Below, one piece after another: positions 9,677-17,508 of a DNA stretch of 64,000 nucleotides. The stretch is from positions 32,001 through 96,000 of the forward strand of contig CAWJGT010000001.1 in the NCBI GenBank assembly GCA_963842525.1, written 5' to 3'. The stretch is from an uncultured Holophagales bacterium. GTDB taxonomy: Bacteria > Acidobacteriota > Thermoanaerobaculia > Multivoradales > UBA5704. The number at the start of each line of letters is the position of its first letter. Within the stretch, counting starts at the first letter, position 1. The notes beneath the pieces are model-generated. The model was not told the DNA's origin. It made no database searches and saw nothing but the letters and a program-made list of their open reading frames with translations. Made by a program: the position numbers and the translations under genes.

Positions 9677-10041
9677 GACTGGCCCTCCTTCTCCTCCTGC
9701 TCCTCCTGCCGCTCCCGCCACTCTTCGTACAGCTCGGCCGGCGCCAGATCCCCGGCCTCGTCGAGAGACTCGATAGCCGGCTCGATGTCATCTGCGAGGA
9801 TGCACTCGATTGATCCAATCAACGCGAAGGTGAGGGACTGCGGCTTCCGGTGCTCGCCCTGGGCTTCCGCGTCTTCTGCGGTGTACAGCTCCGGGAGAGA
9901 GTGACGGACGCCCCTGAGGACCATGGCGACCTCGCGCAGCTTGCCGGCTGCACAACGGATCAACCGTTGCGCTGCAATCTCGTCTCGGGTCTTGGGGGTG
10001 AAGGTGGGTCGGGTGGGGTTAGACTTCTCGGGCCTGGGCAT
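9673..10041 (-). CDS. hypothetical helical protein
   Basis: GAGGAG RBS upstream, acidic helical ORF, first gene of a coupled three-gene operon. Confidence 0.65.
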   Translation of the reverse strand: MPRPEKSNPTRPTFTPKTRDEIAAQRLIRCAAGKLREVAMVLRGVRHSLPELYTAEDAEAQGEHRKPQSLTFALIGSIECILADDIEPAIESLDEAGDLAPAELYEEWRERQEEQEEKEGQS

Positions 10042-10065
10042 GGGACTCGCTCCTCTGCCTGGGTA

Positions 10066-10102
10066 GGCTCGGGCGGGGTGGTCATAACACCCCGTTCGGG
10101 CC
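10066..10102 (-). promoter_or_regulatory. 5'-leader hairpin upstream of the 10041 operon
   Basis: GGCTCGGGCGGGGTG-gtcataa-CACCCCGTTCGGGCC; a comparable hairpin precedes the transposase (approx. 6014-6047). Confidence 0.35.
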
Positions 10103-10220
10103 GCTACGGTGGGTCTGTGGGTGGGAAGATGCGCTCTCCCCTCCTGGAGAGGGGAGGTTAGACCGGTCCGGTAGGATTGTGGACCGGTCCGGGCGTAACT
10201 ATTCTAGGGGCAGCACTACC

Positions 10221-10250
10221 TCCCGCGGGGAACCTTGCCGATCCCGCGGG
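10221..10250. repeat. array A, right remnant
   Basis: CCGCGGGGAACCTTGCCGATCCCGCGGG is identical to 2305-2332. Confidence 0.85.
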
Positions 10251-10287
10251 GCCACACGACGACGGCCTCTTCGGCACGACTTGGACG

Positions 10288-10833
10288 CTATGCTCGGAGA
10301 TGACCGGCCTCGCTCGCGCTGTGCTGACGGCGCCGGCGTCTGCCGAGCTTCTGCTCCAGGACGTCGCCCATGACACCGAGTAGGCCACCAATGCCCACCA
10401 CCACGTCGAGCAATCTCTGCTCCGATGGTTTCTTGGGCCATCCAGCGCCATCGATGAGCACGCAGACACCCTCGACATAGCGCAGGTCGGCCAGCAGCCT
10501 CTTGACATCCCCTCGCACGGAAACTTCCGGGCTCCCCATGGGGCCGTCCAGCAGCTCGGGGTCGGCAAACACGAGCTTCCACAGGAAATTGCCCAGGTCA
10601 CGGAAATTGACCTCTTGGGCAGGCGGTAGATATTGCAGAAAGCGCTCTCTGAACGGTGCGAGCTCGCTGAAGCTACCCGGACTGGTCCGGACGAGGTGAT
10701 CCACAAGTGCGGCGTGCTGGTCGACTTCGACCTGCTCGCGAAGCAATGCCAAGACCGCCTCGACCGACTCGCGGAGCTCAGGGAGATTCTCAACACGTGG
10801 ATTCTGAGGTGCCTCTATGGGATTGCCGCTCAT
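10288..10833 (-). CDS. hypothetical helical protein
   Basis: 181-aa ORF, ATGA coupling with the upstream gene. Confidence 0.6.
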   Translation of the reverse strand: MSGNPIEAPQNPRVENLPELRESVEAVLALLREQVEVDQHAALVDHLVRTSPGSFSELAPFRERFLQYLPPAQEVNFRDLGNFLWKLVFADPELLDGPMGSPEVSVRGDVKRLLADLRYVEGVCVLIDGAGWPKKPSEQRLLDVVVGIGGLLGVMGDVLEQKLGRRRRRQHSASEAGHLRA

Positions 10834-11054
10834 CGGGCCGCCCTTTCCTCAACCCTCCGTACCTCAGGAGACCGTGGCCGGCGCCGGCGTATGGGACGTA
10901 TGGGCTTGGGCGCCAATGCCTTGCGGGCGATCTTGGCGCAGCGGGGACAGTCCAGCAGGTGGAGGACGAAACCGGCGTCGGAAGTCGGCAGGGCCCGCAG
11001 CATCTCCCGCAGATCCCCTGCCTTCGGATGCTTCCATCCCTGCCTCTCAGCCAT
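10830..11054 (-). CDS. small zf-HC2/ZAS-like protein
   Basis: GGAGG RBS; HP...HLLDCPRC motif; basic tail. Confidence 0.55.
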   Translation of the reverse strand: MAERQGWKHPKAGDLREMLRALPTSDAGFVLHLLDCPRCAKIARKALAPKPIRPIRRRRPRSPEVRRVEERAAR

Positions 11055-11277
11055 GCAGAACATCCTCCGGATCGAGCCGGTGGGTGCGCGGGCGGTCCGC
11101 CAGGCTCCAGATAGGCGCGGTGACCGCCACACACACCCGGCAGCCGGTCAACAGATGACGCACGACGGCACGCCGTTCGGGGTGGTCGGACTCCCCGCGC
11201 AGGAAGCGTTCGAGCTGCCCCTCTCCGGGATGCCTGGTCGACCGGTCCGCCTGCGCGGCGGCTCTCTCCTTGAACAT
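11047..11277 (-). CDS. small zf-HC2/ZAS-like protein
   Basis: GAGGAGGAG RBS; HP...LERFLRGE...VVRHLLTGCRVC. Confidence 0.6.
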   Translation of the reverse strand: MFKERAAAQADRSTRHPGEGQLERFLRGESDHPERRAVVRHLLTGCRVCVAVTAPIWSLADRPRTHRLDPEDVLHG

Positions 11278-11522
11278 CGCGCCGTCTCCTCCTCAGGGGC
11301 GAAGCCCCCATCGCTGGAGCGAGGCTACGGGAGCCCGCGCCCGTCTCCAACAGCGGGACAGCAATCGACGAAAAAGCCGGTTCTCTTTCCCAGGGAACCG
11401 CAGGATTCTGCGCCCCGATTTCGTCCCGGCACGAGAGGAGGGAGCATTTTCATTCCCTGGTGTCACGCATCCTGCGCCGCCCGGCACTCTTAGTCTTTAG
11501 AATGCGCGACAAAGGAGGGAGC

Positions 11523-12964
11523 ATGGCGGACGAGATCCCATTGGAGTCCCGGGCGTTGCGGCAGATGCGGGAGGCCCATGGTTGGAAGGGCTACCAGTTG
11601 GCTGCGGCCCTCGGCATGACGCCGGAGTCGCTGTACCACTATGAGGCAGGGGACACGATGACGCCGTCGCCGGAGCTTCTGGAGCTGGCTGCTGCGAAGA
11701 TGGGCTACTCGGAAGCCATGGTGGACCGCACCTTCACCTATCTGCGGCTCGCGGACGCCGACCTGGCCCTGGGCGCGTCCGCCGCCGGGCCAGCGCACCG
11801 GGAGCTGCGGCAGGCCGCCGCCGAGATGGGCCTGCTCTGGGAGGAGGTCAACGTCTCGATGGGGCTGCGCGCCGGGATCCGGCTCGACGCGCAGATCGAG
11901 CGGCGGCGCGCGCCGGACCTGTGGGAGCGCCTGAAGAAGCACACGTCCGCGCAGCGGCGGGCGGTCTATCAGGAGGACGAGGACTACCGGAGCTGGGGCC
12001 TGATGGAGGTCCTCTGCCAGAAGAGCCTGGACGCTGCGCGGGACAACGCCCAACGGTCCCTGGAGCTGGCCGAGGAAGCCCTTTTCCTCGCCCGCCTCGT
12101 GGACGTCCCCGAGCTCTTCCGGCTGCGCCTGGAAGGTTTCGCCGGCATCCACGTCGGCAATGCCACCCGCGTGGGGGGCCACCTGCCACCGGCCGCCGCG
12201 GCGTTCGACGAGGCGCTCGACCGCTGGAAGGCCGGCGCCCCGGGCGACCCCGAGGGCCTGCTCGACGAAGTCTCGCGTGCTCGATCTCGAGGCGTCGCTG
12301 CGCCGCGACGCAGCGACGCCTGCCCGAGGCGCTCCACCTCCTCGAGCGTGCCCTCGCCGCCGACCGTACCGGCACCCGAGCAGGCCACATCCTGGTCATT
12401 CGGGCCAAGACTCTCGAAGAGATGGGAAGGAACGACGAGGCCGTCGCTACCCTCCAGCAGGCCCTGCCGCGGATCGACGCCCTTCGCGAGCCCCGGCTGC
12501 TCTGGGACGTGCGCCAGAACCTGCTGGTCAACCTGGGACGCATGGGCCGCGCCGCCGAGGCCGAGGGGCCGCTGGAGGACCTGCGGAAGGAGGCCCTCCG
12601 CCGCGGCAACCGGCTGGACTTGACGCGGCTCGTGTGGCTTCGCGGGACCCTCGACGCCGGCCTCGGCCGGCCCACGCAGGCCGAACGCGCGTTCGAGCAG
12701 GCGCGAAAGGAGTTTCTGGCGAGCGGCATCGCCTACGACGCCGCCCTGGTCTCCCTGGAGCTGTCCGTCCTCTACCTGGGCCAGGAGCGGACGGCGGAGG
12801 TGAAGGATCTCGCCCGCGAGCTCGCCCCGGTCTTCCATCTCCAGGGGGTCTCGCGCGAGACCCTGGCCACCGTCAAACTGTTCCGCGAAGCCGTGGAGAA
12901 GGAGACGATCACGATGGAGCTGGCGCAACAGCTCCTGGCCGATCTGCGCCGTGCAGGATCTTGA
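11523..12964 (+). CDS. XRE-family HTH plus TPR-repeat regulator (frameshifts near 12270-12310, probably sequencing error)
   Basis: AAAGGAGG RBS; LRQMREAHGWKGYQLAAALGMTPESLYHYEAG HTH; TPR-like C-terminus ending AYDAALVSLELSVLYL... Confidence 0.85.
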
Positions 12965-12968
12965 GCTG

Positions 12969-13035
12969 TTTCCCCCTCTCCCGTTCGGGGCGGTTGGCCG
13001 GTGGCCGTCCGGGAGAGGGGGCCAGGGGGTGAGGG
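12969..13035. repeat. REP-like CCCTCACCCCC..CCCCTCTCCC..GGGAGAGGGG element
   Basis: Palindromic CCCCTCTCCC/GGGAGAGGGG stem; related partial copies near 10134, 45273 and 46262. Confidence 0.6.
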
Positions 13036-13037
13036 AT

Positions 13038-13424
13038 TCAGTCGATGCACCGGCCGAACGGGTCGACCGAGCATCCAGCATCGCCCGTCGTGGGAGCACC
13101 GGAGGTGCCTTCGCCCGTGCCCGGGATGCACCGCCCGTTCGGGTCGACTGAGCATCCAGCATCGCCGGTCGTGGTGGCGCCGGAGGTGCCGCTTCTCGTG
13201 CCGGGGATGCACCGGCCGAACGGGTCGACCGAGCACCCGTTCTCACCCCACAGGGAGGTGAGCGCGTTCCAGAAGCGGGTGAGGAGGTCGAGCCGGGCCC
13301 ACTCGAAGGTGCCGGCGCGGTCCGGGCCGGGGAGGGTCCGCGGCGGCTCGGCCAGCGCCCACGAGGCGGCGAGAGACCCGGCGAGCAGCAGGACCGCGAT
13401 CTTGCGGCGGAAGGACGTGCTCAT
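13038..13424 (-). CDS. secreted repeat-core peptide precursor (3x GCSVDP[F/N]GRC)
   Basis: AAAGGAG RBS; Sec-type signal MSTSFRRKIAVLLLAGSLAASWALA; 81-bp (27-aa) tandem repeats at 13044, 13125 and 13206. Confidence 0.8.
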   Translation of the reverse strand: MSTSFRRKIAVLLLAGSLAASWALAEPPRTLPGPDRAGTFEWARLDLLTRFWNALTSLWGENGCSVDPFGRCIPGTRSGTSGATTTGDAGCSVDPNGRCIPGTGEGTSGAPTTGDAGCSVDPFGRCID

Positions 13425-13549
13425 GCGCAGCTCCTTTCGGGGCTGCCGCCGGCCCGGGCCGCCATGGCCACGGCGGCGGCGCCCGCAGAATTATGGTGCG
13501 ATCCAGGAGCCGGCACCGCGACAACCCCAGGTTTTCGGAGGAGACGACC

Positions 13550-14987
13550 ATGAAAACCCTACGCGGGCGGCCCGGCCTCGGCGCCGCCCTGGCCGCGGTC
13601 CGGATTCTCCAGGGAAAGAGCCGCCCGGAGGTGGAACGGGACGCCCGCCTCAAGCCGGGCACCCTCTCCACCTATGAAGAAGGCCGGACCACGCCGCAGC
13701 CGGCCACGCTGGAGCGCATCGCCGCCGCTCTCGGCGTCTCCATTCCGGTGCTGATCGCCCTCGGCGACCTCCTGGCCGCCTTTCACGGGCTCCTCGGCGG
13801 CGCCTGGATCGCCGGCGTCATCCGCTCTGCGATCCGGCTTGCGCGGGCCGTCCACGCCGCGCTGTCTGCGCGGGTCGAGGCCATACCCGTGGCACCTCCT
13901 TGCGTCAGCCTGCTCCCCGCCGAGGAGGAGCGGCGGCAGGCTGCGGAGCTGTGGCAGCGGCTCGAAGCGTACACGGCCGACCAGCGGCGCGCGATCTACC
14001 AGGAGTCACCGCGCTTCCAGAGGTGGGGCCTGGTGGAGATCCTCTGCCAGAAAAGCCTGGACGCCGCGCGGGACAGCGCCCAGCGGTCCCTGGAGCTGGC
14101 CGAGGAGGCCCTCTTCCTCGCCCGCCTCGTCCCCGAGCCCTTGCGCCAGCGACGTGGAAGGCTTTGCCAGCATCCATATCGCAAACGCCACCCGCGTGGG
14201 GGGCCAACCGCGAGCGGCCCGCGTCGCGTTCGACCAGGCCCTGGACCGCTGGCAGGCTCGGCGCTCCGGGCGACCCTGAGGGCCTGCTCGACGAATCTCG
14301 CGTCCTTGATCTTGAGGCGTCTTTGTGTCGCGCGGAGCGCCGCCTCCCCGAGGCGCTTGACCTCCTTGACCGCGCCCTCGCCGCCGACCGCGGCGGCGTC
14401 CGGGCGGGCGCATCCTGATCATCCGAGCCAAGACCCTGGAAGAGCTGGGCAGGAACGAGGAGGCCGTCGCCACCCTCCAGCAGGCCGTGGCGCGGATCGA
14501 CGCCGAGCGTGAGCCCCGGCTGCTCTGGGACGTGCGCCAGAATTTGTTGGTCAACCTTTGCCGGCTCGGCCGCCATGCCGAGGCCGAGCAGTCGCTGGGG
14601 GACCTGCACATCGAGGCGATGCAACTCGGCAACCGGCTGGACTTGACTCGCGTCATATGGCTCCGCGGGACCATCGACGCCGGCCTCGGCCGGCCTGAGG
14701 CGGCTGAAGCAGCCTTCGAGGAGGTGCGGAAGGATTTCCTGGCAGACGGCATCGCCTACGACGCCGCCCTGGTCACCCTGGAGCTGGCCGTTCTCCATCT
14801 GAAGGAAAGGCGCACGGCCGAGGTCCAGGAGCTGACCCGCCAGCTCCTCCCGGTCTTCAAGGCCCAGCAGGTCTCCCGAGAAGCCCTCGCTACCGTCAAG
14901 CTGTTCTGCGAGGCCGTGGAAAAGGAGACCATCTCCGTGGAGCTCGCGCAGGGCTTTTTGGACGACCTCCGCCGGGTTGGGGCGTGA
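13550..14987 (+). CDS. XRE-family HTH plus TPR-repeat regulator, paralogue of 11523 (frameshifts near 14150, 14258, 14408)
   Basis: GGAGGAG RBS; TLSTYEEGRTTPQPATLERIAAALG HTH; C-terminal half closely similar to the 11523 protein. Confidence 0.85.
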
Positions 14988-15005
14988 CCGTGGGGGAAGG
15001 AAATC

Positions 15006-15881
15006 TCAGAAGCGGAAAAGGACGCCGACCTCCGGGGCCACGTCCGGAGCCTGCTCGGTGAGGCCGACGCCGCAGTTGAGCTTGAGGAAGGCCCGTGGGG
15101 AGAAGAACCACTGGGCCTCGCCGATCAGGAAGACGTCTTCGGTCTCGCCCTCGACCGCCGCGACGAGGCGCCAGCCCGGCGAGACGCGCTTCAGGTACTC
15201 GACGGCGTACTCGCCCAGCTCGACCTGGCTTTCCTCGCCGTCGTAGGCGATCGTCGCGCGTCCCGTGATCGTTCCCCAGCGATAGCCGCGGATCACTCCG
15301 AAGCCGAGCTTCCCCTCCCAATCGTGGGTGCCGATGAGGACCTCGTTCTTCTGGAACGGGAAGACGACCTCGAGGAAGCTGAACAGCTCCGGGCGATCCG
15401 CGGTCTCCTCCTGCCAGCGCCAGCGGAGCTGGGCCTCGACGTCGCCCAGCCCGGACTCCTCGAGGTGGGCGGGAACGGCGCTCGGGTCGTCGGCGGCCTT
15501 GTCGAACGTCGCCTTGGTGTAGACGGCGCCTTCGAGCTCTACCGCGAGACGGTCCGAGATCCCGTAGGCGAGGAAGAGCAGGTATTCGTGCTCGACCAGC
15601 TTGCCGAGGAAGTCGTCGCTGCCCACGAACCCGAGCTCTCGTGGCTGATACTCGAAGGCGGTCGTCTTTGAGTACTCATAGAACGGATAAACCAGGATCT
15701 CGCCCTTTTCGACAAAGGTGCCGAAGGAGGACGTCGAGAGACCCCGGCCCCGGTCGGAGAGGTATTCCGGCAGCTCCGGATCCTGGGCGCCGAGCGGCGC
15801 ACCGGCCGCGAGCACTGCAACGGCCGCCAGTACCATCCGGCAGGCAGACCGGGCTCCGCACTTCGAACCGGACCGGCGCAT
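15006..15881 (-). CDS. putative outer-membrane beta-barrel (transporter/MetA-pathway-like)
   Basis: Signal peptide, GLGDVEAQLRWR motif, alternating beta pattern, C-terminal FRF. Confidence 0.7.
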   Translation of the reverse strand: MRRSGSKCGARSACRMVLAAVAVLAAGAPLGAQDPELPEYLSDRGRGLSTSSFGTFVEKGEILVYPFYEYSKTTAFEYQPRELGFVGSDDFLGKLVEHEYLLFLAYGISDRLAVELEGAVYTKATFDKAADDPSAVPAHLEESGLGDVEAQLRWRWQEETADRPELFSFLEVVFPFQKNEVLIGTHDWEGKLGFGVIRGYRWGTITGRATIAYDGEESQVELGEYAVEYLKRVSPGWRLVAAVEGETEDVFLIGEAQWFFSPRAFLKLNCGVGLTEQAPDVAPEVGVLFRF

Positions 15882-16056
15882 GGTGAGGCTCCTTTCTCCG
15901 AGGCTGCCGCTGCATTGCGCACCTCCTCTTCCGTTGGATGCACGAAGCGAGAAAGTCCTTCGCGGAGGAAACCTCGATTCGGCAGGATCTCGCAGCCGGA
16001 TCGCGCCGGGGCCGGGTGCGGTAGACTTATCCTTTCGACGCGAAACGAGGTCTACC

Positions 16057-17508
16057 ATGCTCCAACGCACCCGCTTGCACGGACCGCTCGCGGTCCTGTT
16101 GCTGTCAACCCTGTCCCTGAGCCTCGGCTGCTCGGTCAATCCGGCGACCGGCAAACAGCAGCTCAACTTCTACAACGAGGCGGAAGAGATCGAGATGGGC
16201 CAGCAGGCCAACGCGGAGATCGTCACCTCGGTGGGGCTCTATGACGATCCCGAGCTGCAGGCCTATGTCGAGGATCTGGGGATGAAGATCGCCGCCGCCT
16301 CGGAGCGGCCGCATCTGCCCTGGAGCTTCAAGATCGTGGACGATCCGGCGGTCAACGCCTTCGCCCTGCCCGGCGGCTACGTTTACATCACCCGCGGGCT
16401 CCTGACCCACCTCGAATCCGAGGCAGAGCTGGTCTCGGTCCTCGGCCACGAGGTCGGGCACGTCACAGCCCGCCACGGCCTCAATCAGCAGAGCAAGCAG
16501 GTGCTTGCCATCGTCGGCATCGGCATCGCCGCGTTCCTCGACCCCGACCTCGAGGAGCTGGCCGGAGTCGCCGGCCTCGGCATGTCGCTGCTCTTCCTCA
16601 AGTATGGCCGGGACGACGAGCGCCAGGCCGACGACCTCGGGCTGCGCTACATGGTGCGCACCGGCCACGACCCGCGCCACATGCCCGAGCTCTTCTCCGT
16701 CCTCGAGGGGGTGGCGAAGGTCGAGGGGGTGGGCCGGCTGCCGAATTGGCTGTCGACCCATCCGAACCCGGGAGCCCGCCGCGAGCGCATCCAGAAGGAG
16801 GTCGACGCCCTGCCGGGGGATTTCAGCCAGGCCGTGGTCAACCGCGACGGCTACCTGCGCCGGCTGGATGGCGCGGTCTTCGGCGACAACCCGCGCGACG
16901 GCTTCTTCGAGGGCAACGCCTTCGTGCATCCGGACCTGCGTTTCCGCATCGAGTTCCCCGACGGTTGGGAAACCGCCAACGAGACAGCTTCGGTTTCAGC
17001 GTCGCAGCCGGGCGGCAACGCCGTGGTCCAGGTCGCACTGGCGGAGAAGGGCACGCCGAAGGAGGCCACGGACGAATTCTTCGCGGCAGAGGGGGTGACC
17101 CGCGGCGAATCCTGGGAGAAGCGGGTCCACAGCCTGCCGGCCCAGTGGAACCGTTTCGATTATTCGGACGGTGACAGCGAGCTGCACGGCACGGTCGCCT
17201 TTGTCCAGCATGAGGGAAAGGTCTTCCAGCTCCTTGCGCTCGCCGCGCCGAAAGAGTGGACAGACAACCAGGAGTCCATGGAGGAGGCGCTCGCCACCTT
17301 CTCCCGCCTCGACGATCCGGAAGCCCTGAAATCCCAGCCGAACCGCCTGAAGCTGGTCGAGATCCGCAAGGAGATGACCCTGGAAGAGTTCAACCGCCAG
17401 TACCCGTCCGCCGTGGAGATGCCGACCCTGGCCCTGATCAACCACGTGCAGCCGACCGATCCGATCCCGGCGGGGTCGCTGGTCAAGCGGGTCGTGAAGG
17501 CTCCTTGA
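16057..17508 (+). CDS. M48-family metalloprotease lipoprotein (BepA/YfgC-like)
   Basis: SLGC lipobox, VNAFALPGG, HEVGH zinc motif, STHP. Confidence 0.92.
   Translation: MLQRTRLHGPLAVLLLSTLSLSLGCSVNPATGKQQLNFYNEAEEIEMGQQANAEIVTSVGLYDDPELQAYVEDLGMKIAAASERPHLPWSFKIVDDPAVNAFALPGGYVYITRGLLTHLESEAELVSVLGHEVGHVTARHGLNQQSKQVLAIVGIGIAAFLDPDLEELAGVAGLGMSLLFLKYGRDDERQADDLGLRYMVRTGHDPRHMPELFSVLEGVAKVEGVGRLPNWLSTHPNPGARRERIQKEVDALPGDFSQAVVNRDGYLRRLDGAVFGDNPRDGFFEGNAFVHPDLRFRIEFPDGWETANETASVSASQPGGNAVVQVALAEKGTPKEATDEFFAAEGVTRGESWEKRVHSLPAQWNRFDYSDGDSELHGTVAFVQHEGKVFQLLALAAPKEWTDNQESMEEALATFSRLDDPEALKSQPNRLKLVEIRKEMTLEEFNRQYPSAVEMPTLALINHVQPTDPIPAGSLVKRVVKAP

Follow-up and report, generated by a model that had tools for sequence, protein, structure and literature searches.

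Could a bacterium with an outer membrane use small exported peptides as signals that are read by helix-turn-helix (HTH) regulators with tetratricopeptide repeats (TPRs)? This question is raised by region 11523–14987 of a DNA stretch of 64,000 nucleotides, called the window here, from an uncultured Holophagales bacterium (assembly GCA_963842525.1, contig CAWJGT010000001.1, positions 32,001 to 96,000 of the forward strand). The region consists of three genes: gene A, a minus-strand peptide gene and gene B. Genetically encoded peptide pheromones with cytoplasmic TPR receptors are framed as a hallmark of Bacillota in the RRNPP_detector paper (PMC10075063). An earlier note on this DNA had described an XRE-TPR pair flanking a 128-aa three-core exported precursor, and the coordinates, the open reading frame (ORF) and the Pfam matches agree with that description, with the signal peptide assigned by inspection. 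The locus represents one member of a large family of cassettes specific to the Thermoanaerobaculia, a class of the Acidobacteriota. Its reading as a peptide-sensor pairing that resembles RRNPP systems, and is not RRNPP by descent, is tentative and falls a little short of even confidence; the peptide would bind the TPR sensor and carry a signal.

A peptide gene linked to its regulators

The features of the locus are as follows.

11523–12964, plus strand: gene A, an XRE-HTH and TPR regulator convergent to the peptide gene, frame broken twice
11550–11726, plus strand: HTH domain of gene A, matched by HTH_31 over residues 10–68, of the 'convergent-position' HTH type
13038–13424, minus strand: propeptide gene, an intact ORF of 128 aa for a putative exported multi-core precursor
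13350–13424, minus strand: putative Sec signal peptide, residues 1–25, cleavage after ALA, by inspection, with the pattern kept in alignment A3
13209–13238, minus strand: core 1, GCSVDPFGRC, residues 63–72
13128–13157, minus strand: core 2, GCSVDPNGRC, residues 90–99
13047–13076, minus strand: core 3, GCSVDPFGRC, residues 117–126, two residues before the stop
13551–14987, plus strand: gene B, an XRE-HTH and TPR regulator divergent from the peptide gene, frame broken three times

Gene A and the peptide gene converge, with 73 bp between their stops, and the peptide gene and gene B diverge with 126 bp between them. Canonical Shine-Dalgarno sequences precede all three genes, including AAGGAG upstream of the peptide gene ATG and AAAGGAGGG upstream of the gene A ATG at 11523. 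Gene A matches the Pfam families HTH_31 (E 3.9e-10) and TPR_12 (E 8.7e-8), gene B matches HTH_31 (E 1.2e-10) and weakly TPR families, and HTH_3 is also matched by the N-terminal parts of both (E up to 1e-8). By inspection, the propeptide N-terminus is of Sec type, with RRK, a hydrophobic run and then ALA before E. It is followed by a Trp-rich amphipathic helix, LDLLTRFWNALTSLW, recognised by reading, and by the three GCSVDP[F/N]GRC cores, which are separated by Gly/Thr/Ser-rich linkers. In alignment A3 the G, C, D, P, G and C of the cores are invariant or nearly so. Calcium-binding repeats of RTX or EF-hand-like type were considered for the DPxG units and rejected on reading, as the spacing is unlike those motifs.

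No family in Pfam or NCBIfam matched the propeptide, its 22 matches in a set of 5.8 billion proteins are all 'hypothetical' or unnamed, and an ESM Atlas search returned unnamed Acidobacteriota clusters at 0.89–0.91. Chance is no concern for this ORF, as the family has 33 matches in its own genome and is present in 23 of the 24 other genomes of the family-level group, with up to 31 matches per genome. In other families of the order, only weak matches turned up, one each in 5 of 16 genomes.

Linkage of such peptide ORFs to XRE-TPR genes had been set beforehand as the test of the proposal, and it holds in the genome itself (9.95 Mb, 34 contigs, 67% GC). A motif-defined peptide ORF was taken as a small ORF that begins like a signal peptide and carries two or more [ILVMAST]DPxG units, giving 37 in the genome, while tblastn with the TPR half of gene A gave 87 TPR loci. 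Within 1.5 kb of a TPR locus lie 33 of the 37 peptide ORFs, compared with 3% of random 400-bp segments. Seen from the other side, 41 of the 87 TPR loci have a motif-defined peptide ORF beside them, and relaxed criteria (one DPxG unit or the Trp helix) add a candidate peptide at 20 of the remaining 46. Two peptide genes each occur twice with identical flanks (C9:3995-4408 and C18:2594-3007; C10:33013-33195 and C8:979-1161), which suggests redundant contigs or very recent duplications in an assembly with 3.4% contamination.

The cassette is two-component, consisting of peptide and regulator. Among 535 ORFs with high GC content at third codon positions within 5 kb of the 37 peptide genes, only two families recur: the regulator, whose 35 members are spread over 23 cassettes, and the peptide, with 9 members in 9 cassettes. 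By clustering within this genome, no enzyme, transporter or protease family recurs at that distance from the 37 cassettes. This bears on a possible kinship with RiPPs, peptides made by ribosomes and modified after translation. What defines a RiPP precursor is the presence of modifying enzymes beside it, such as radical SAM, YcaO or lanthionine synthetase proteins or a peptidase-transporter, and a RiPP leader is not usually a Sec signal peptide. Multi-core precursors of the cyanobactin type resemble the cassette peptides in their repeated short cores, linkers and conserved flanks. However, RiPP clusters carry a modifying enzyme next to the precursor, whereas the cassettes have no recurrent enzyme gene within 5 kb; the absence of an adjacent RiPP-modifying enzyme, already remarked on for this locus, extends to the set of cassettes.

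The linkage extends to related genomes. At the best peptide loci from 11 other genomes, a regulator homologue lies within 1.5 kb in all 11 and on both sides in 8. All 20 larger regions fetched around peptide matches hold regulators and 18 hold a motif-defined peptide ORF; 8 of these regions repeat earlier loci and 12 are new. In total, a regulator stands beside the peptide at 23 of 23 distinct loci in 16 related genomes. One of the loci, L040 (G024:C4:219000-229000), is a 10-kb tandem array in which five Cys-loop peptide genes alternate with regulators, indicating that cassettes multiply locally.

The regulator has a similarly confined range. The nearest named relative of P0023, an intact paralogue from the same genome, comes from a Thermoanaerobaculia metagenome-assembled genome (48% identity, E 2e-113), and the source names of homologues are Thermoanaerobaculia or Acidobacteria. 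A regulator profile was built from 82 sequences, P0023 and 81 of 150 listed representatives picked for full length, and it matched 8 of 301 genomes sampled across the phylum, all from the same class. In a representative set of 1.84 billion proteins, the relatives number 5258 at E ≤ 0.001, 3346 at 1e-10 and 936 at 1e-30, the last being clusters at 50% identity.

The cores were compared across 36 distinct precursors with 88 cores, where the search pattern itself imposes D, P and the last G. Cores are repeated 2–4 times per precursor, and the residue before DPxG is I, L, M or V in 84 of the 88. The variable core positions agree at 0.63 within a precursor and 0.30 between precursors, a level reached by none of 2000 shuffles. 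In the window the core repeats are nearly identical in DNA as well, so recent duplication or conversion explains the agreement within precursors as well as selection does. At their C-terminus, 19 of the 37 precursors end exactly at DPxG with no residue after the last unit. RRNPP pheromones are often derived from the C-terminal end of the propeptide.

One putative sensor half and several N-terminal domains

The earlier note had also pointed to divergent HTHs joined to similar TPR regions, and the comparison of genes A and B bears this out. Their DNA is 85% identical from about codon 125 on and barely alignable before it, and the TPR halves share 74% protein identity. In the AlphaFold2 (AF2) model the change falls in the disordered linker before the first helix of the TPR module. 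The closest counterpart is a sister cassette on contig C9 with the same gene order, consisting of the divergent regulator P0023 (482 aa, intact), the peptide P0024 and a convergent regulator whose frame shifts once, late in the gene. The HTH of gene A is 56.5% identical to that of the same-position regulator in this paralogous cassette.

This pattern is general among the cassettes sampled. From 30 loci 39 regulators were extracted and 33 used, after dropping three co-directional regulators with a zinc motif and three shorter than 450 aa. In the 13 two-regulator cassettes among them, TPR halves are on average 70% identical within a cassette and 42% between cassettes, and in 11 of the 13 the two TPR halves are mutually closest among the sampled TPRs. 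The two HTH domains of a cassette share a mean identity of 24%, and each is nearer to the same-position HTH of another cassette (13 of 13 convergent and 12 of 13 divergent). Within a cassette, in this limited sample, the sensor half stays alike while the DNA-binding halves differ. Such an arrangement fits two regulators that read one cassette-specific input and act on different operators. The earlier proposal of two receptors with separate operators is consistent with this pattern, TPR halves being homogenised by cassette and HTHs set by position.

A second cassette type would widen the range of outputs. Many genes of the regulator family have no HTH and instead carry a short three-helix N-terminal segment with a zinc motif, joined to the same TPR module. 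In alignment A5 the motif consists of an invariant His and a near-invariant His-x4-Cys-x2-Cys (H5, H30, C35, C38). The peptide gene lies directly upstream on the same strand as the zinc-motif TPR gene, and the peptides are mostly linear and end exactly at DPxG, as in an example with three GDNGGQLDPxG units. Because the same TPR module with a different N-domain keeps its peptide gene, the peptide travels with the TPR module and not with the HTH. The sister loci are:

L018 (G000:C9:846501-851500), L020, L021, L022 and about 17 further loci of the same genome (G000), co-directional: sister cassettes with a linear DPxG peptide

Zinc-binding anti-sigma (ZAS) factors include ChrR and RsrA. Their three-helix N-terminus with His and His-x4-Cys-x2-Cys is resembled by the sister-type receptors. 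No anti-sigma or zf-HC2 match to the zinc-motif N-domain was found in Pfam (E up to 10), nor any match among PDB sequences (E up to 10). The genome holds 42 Sigma70_r2 matches, and an extracytoplasmic function (ECF) sigma gene stands directly upstream of a zinc-motif gene at two loci only, C34:43598 and C34:46015. The ZAS-like zinc domain is absent from genes A and B of the window.

Possible peptide sensing and its rivals

The AF2 model of P0023 has a predicted local distance difference test (pLDDT) score of 92.0 and a predicted template modelling (pTM) score of 0.75. It shows an HTH joined by a long helical linker to about eight TPR-like repeats that form a superhelix. Pfam assigned HTH_31 and HTH_3 to P0023, and TPR_12, TPR_1, TPR_2 and others to the regulators. 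In a fold comparison (Foldseek, VIA-align), its neighbours include a phage Rap with its pheromone (8rsv, Z 21.4), RapJ-PhrC (4gyo, Z 21.3) and NprR (5dbk, Z 20.9; 4gpk, Z 20.4), and the Rap and NprR alignments cover about 300 residues of the TPR domain. The named neighbour structures are peptide-bound, except for apo NprR 5dbk. As modelled, the TPR fold is compatible with peptide sensing and does not single out RRNPP. A prediction of the complex between P0023 residues 125–482 and the mature part of P0024 (score 0.04, mark 0.32) is no evidence either way. A transmembrane, periplasm-facing receptor was considered and rejected, as P0023 and gene A have no convincing hydrophobic segment on reading.

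Several results weigh against an RRNPP-like pairing of peptide and sensor. The LGN/Pins TPR structures (4wnd, 5a6c, 3ro2) rank first in the fold comparison with Z 22.0–22.3, and such Z values are common among TPR superhelices, making the structural match not specific. In those entries about eight TPR-like repeats hold an extended peptide in the same superhelix as the model; however, LGN/Pins are eukaryotic scaffold proteins at 13–17% identity, with only the fold in common and no bearing on function. RRNPP membership by sequence found no backing. A phmmer search against all PDB sequences (E up to 1) returned no Rap, NprR, PlcR, Rgg, PrgX or AimR, its matches being designed TPRs, DdrOC/XRE and LapB, and Pfam and NCBIfam gave only generic HTH and TPR models for the regulators.

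The genetic association also has its limits. Regulator loci taken from elsewhere in the class, outside the family, had a candidate peptide with the same motif in only 2 of 10 cases, one of the two lacking a signal peptide, and regulator-chosen loci in one genome of the same family had one in 1 of 3. TPR homogenisation of adjacent paralogues can come from neutral gene conversion. The check for co-variation between cores and TPRs was mixed: divergent-position regulators gave a partial rank correlation of 0.38 (3 of 2000 permutations) and convergent-position ones 0.13 (294 of 2000), with cores tracking the HTH slightly better. This Mantel-type test of core, TPR and HTH similarity is confounded by shared ancestry and is not used as support. 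In addition, both regulators of the window copy are frameshifted, as are 20 of the 96 regulator loci genome-wide.

Outside the family, L063 (G025:C12:105300-110500), from another family of the order, has a short ORF at 1424–1588 on the plus strand that ends in two RGSLIDPIG units. It has no obvious signal peptide and lies just upstream of a regulator homologue; it may be a leaderless variant of the peptide.

The cell envelope adds a further difficulty. Six Omp85-family matches in the genome lead to the expectation of an outer membrane, for which a peptide of about 1 kDa must have a way out and a way back in. No such route is encoded in the cassette, given that no third family recurs within 5 kb. 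LpxC had no match in this 96% complete genome, which suggests that the outer membrane is possibly without classical lipid A. Three SBP_bac_5 matches represent binding-protein genes of the Opp/Dpp type.

The Trp helix and the Cys loops would also suit a stable extracellular product, and this opens an alternative in which the peptide is what the system regulates. In that case it would act as a secreted effector stabilised by disulfides, whether antimicrobial, adhesive or binding to metals or surfaces, and the HTH-TPR proteins would be dedicated regulators that sense something else. The conservation of the amphipathic helix is in keeping with this, as are the convergent orientation of the peptide gene and its closest regulator and the strong ribosome-binding site that the peptide gene has to itself. 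The diversity of paralogues could reflect an arms race. Nevertheless, an effector leaves unexplained why each of dozens of peptides should have one or two private regulators, why the same TPR half is combined with different HTHs in each cassette, and why the peptide stays with the TPR module when the N-terminal output domain changes. Nor does any immunity, export or modification gene recur nearby. On balance an effector seems unlikely.

An RRNPP-like pairing is the preferred reading. The RRNPP(A) systems (PlcR-PapR, NprR-NprX, Rgg-SHP, PrgX, AimR-AimP and Rap-Phr) share with the cassettes an N-terminal HTH with a C-terminal TPR-type superhelix, and an adjacent small gene for an exported propeptide whose active-looking part is C-terminal, although here the signal peptide is called by inspection. 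Many paralogous cassettes per genome are common to both. The differences are considerable. Sequence homology to the window regulators is undetectable, and RRNPP(A) systems come from Bacillota and their phages, whereas the cassette host is an acidobacterium with an outer membrane. The cassette cores have a fixed [ILVM]-D-P-x-G scaffold, often with a Cys pair. Of the two receptors, one converges with the peptide gene and the other diverges from it, and they have one sensor half in common. Copy number is also far higher here, with 87–96 receptor loci in one genome.

The repetition of cores has a parallel of its own in Rap-Phr systems. Tandemly duplicated pheromones occur there within one propeptide, and extracellular proteolysis yields several, as described in a published account (PMC11343458). 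As in the cassette, each exported precursor contains several putative mature copies. In contrast to the cassette, Phr cores are linear, five or six residues long, and lack both a common scaffold and a Cys pair, and Rap receptors have no HTH.

A hypothetical mechanism runs as follows. The propeptide would be exported and its Cys pairs would close 9-residue loops in the periplasm, where proteases could release several copies of a short core peptide. This peptide or a fragment of it may then re-enter the cytoplasm, for instance through an Opp-type importer, and fill the concave groove of the TPR superhelix in both flanking regulators. Through their unrelated XRE HTH domains, the two regulators would act on different operators. 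The sequences establish the anatomy of the genes, their genetic coupling, the two-component make-up of the cassette and the likeness of TPR halves within it; every step of the scheme from export to signalling, along with any dependence on cell density, is hypothetical.

The passage across the outer membrane in this scheme would be avoided if the TPR bound the un-exported pre-peptide, for example through the Trp helix. Regulator activity would in that case track the flux of secretion instead of an extracellular signal, on the pattern of anti-sigma systems under export control, and neither outer-membrane passage nor re-import would be needed. Outside the cores, no part of the precursor is better conserved than the Trp helix, and the zinc motif of the sister type resembles anti-sigma N-domains, a likeness unconfirmed by Pfam or PDB. 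However, what varies in the precursor from cassette to cassette is the repeated core and not the Trp helix, and 2–4 core repeats with exact DPxG ends point to released products. An intracellular switch of this kind is quite improbable.

A broader version of the peptide-sensor pairing holds that each Thermoanaerobaculia cell runs dozens of private peptide channels. Multi-core pheromones on a DPxG scaffold would carry an address in their variable positions, and a non-homologous, convergently evolved TPR sensor would read them and drive at least three outputs. These outputs would be two XRE HTH types on different operators and the zinc-motif, anti-sigma-like domain. This extension is possible, if rather doubtful.

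The window copy and the meaning of the family

The locus that raised the question is itself an imperfect example, since a working system is not what the assembly gives at this position. As assembled, neither gene A nor gene B is one open frame, the former having two shifts and the latter three. Alignment to gene B and P0023 places +1 shifts of gene A near 12270 and near 12308, and its tblastn matches run in frame f3 (11511–12269) and then f2 (12311–12955). Gene B changes frame near 14140, 14256 and 14410 and is matched in f2 (13550–14134), f1 (14260–14409) and f3 (14412–14984), in pieces 50–88% identical to P0023. The indels of both genes lie outside homopolymer runs. Genome-wide, the 96 regulator-family loci comprise 48 complete in one frame, 20 multi-frame, 26 partial and two at contig ends, which is read here as much gene birth and death in the family.

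Because both regulators are frameshifted as assembled, the window copy is probably a decaying member, with an intact peptide gene beside broken regulators. In its strongest form this means that the cassette is a dead relic and both regulators are true pseudogenes, whatever the family does, and such a fate is rather probable. There are five frame changes in 2.9 kb, none in homopolymer runs, and the multi-frame matches of 20 of the 96 regulator loci are consistent with gene birth and death. The genome holds 724 stop-to-stop ORFs of at least 1000 aa, the longest of 10,975 aa, which argues against a high general rate of indel error. On the other hand, canonical ribosome-binding sites are retained in front of all three genes, the peptide gene has an unbroken ORF, and the out-of-frame pieces still translate to conserved protein, 51–88% identical to P0023. 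As these pieces are still well conserved, any inactivation would be recent. The assembly is moreover of metagenome type, 96% complete with 3.4% contamination, and a local consensus error between neighbours that are 85% identical is possible.

In the public soil metagenome run X1 (8% of sampled words), six contig pieces overlap none of the five frameshift sites. A DNA search of five other genomes of the genus gave no close orthologue of the locus, and the best DNA match outside the window is the own-genome paralogue on C9, at 70–71%.

Two intergenic elements complete the locus.

12965–13037, no strand: GC-rich palindromic element between the convergent stops, inverted repeat 12972–12988 / 13005–13021
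13425–13550, no strand: divergent intergenic region with both ribosome-binding sites, an imperfect palindrome at 13458–13477 and a conserved block

The inverted repeat of the first has 17-nt arms with 88% complementarity, and the element as a whole has a minimum free energy of -40.3 kcal/mol. Short-blastn gave 142 matches to this element in the genome, on both strands, of which 29 span no fewer than 50 nt with an identity of at least 80%, and the element occurs in same-genus genomes too. It is probably a bidirectional terminator or a repeat like the repetitive extragenic palindromic (REP) elements. The conserved block of the divergent region, TATGGTGCG, is shared with a paralogous cassette. 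A promoter scan gave no sigma-70 consensus promoter in 13425–13550, three terminator-like sites in the scan were not above shuffled background, and Rfam had no match over 10000–16500.

On the gene A side lie two tandem small ORFs on the minus strand, at 11047–11277 and 10830–11057 (76 and 75 aa), with the motif HLLxGCxxC / HLLDCPRC. They resemble the zinc-motif N-domain of the sister regulators without the TPR part (pairwise E 4e-4 and 0.004). They are followed by an ORF of 181 aa with no known family (10288–10833, minus strand), the group being divergent from gene A. On the gene B side, a barrel-like gene at 15006–15872 (minus strand) has a weak match to Phenol_MetA_deg that misses the cut-off (E 6e-4), and a gene for an M48 family peptidase (E 9e-36) lies at 16051–17508 on the plus strand, about 1 kb beyond gene B. 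Neither of these two genes recurs at other cassettes, and a part for them in peptide export or processing is only a thought.

Literature searches found no paper on the cassette, on RRNPP in Acidobacteria or on Thermoanaerobaculia TPR-HTH proteins, with the reservation that subscription journals and supplements may hold more. Papers on quorum sensing in Thermoanaerobaculia were none of them relevant by title or start of the abstract.

The cassettes present the same logic as RRNPP without detectable homology, in the Acidobacteriota and with about 90 receptor loci in one genome. Synthetic peptides and recombinant TPR domains would put the hypothesis to a direct test. If the broader reading with its many private channels is true, no phylum with an outer membrane would have had RRNPP-like peptide communication described before, and the repertoire per genome would be by far the largest. 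If the peptide-sensor pairing is real, it would raise the question of two-way peptide passage across the outer membrane. The family would then offer a natural library of peptide-receptor pairs, each with a fixed scaffold and variable address positions, and peptide signalling would be extended to a major, poorly cultured soil phylum.

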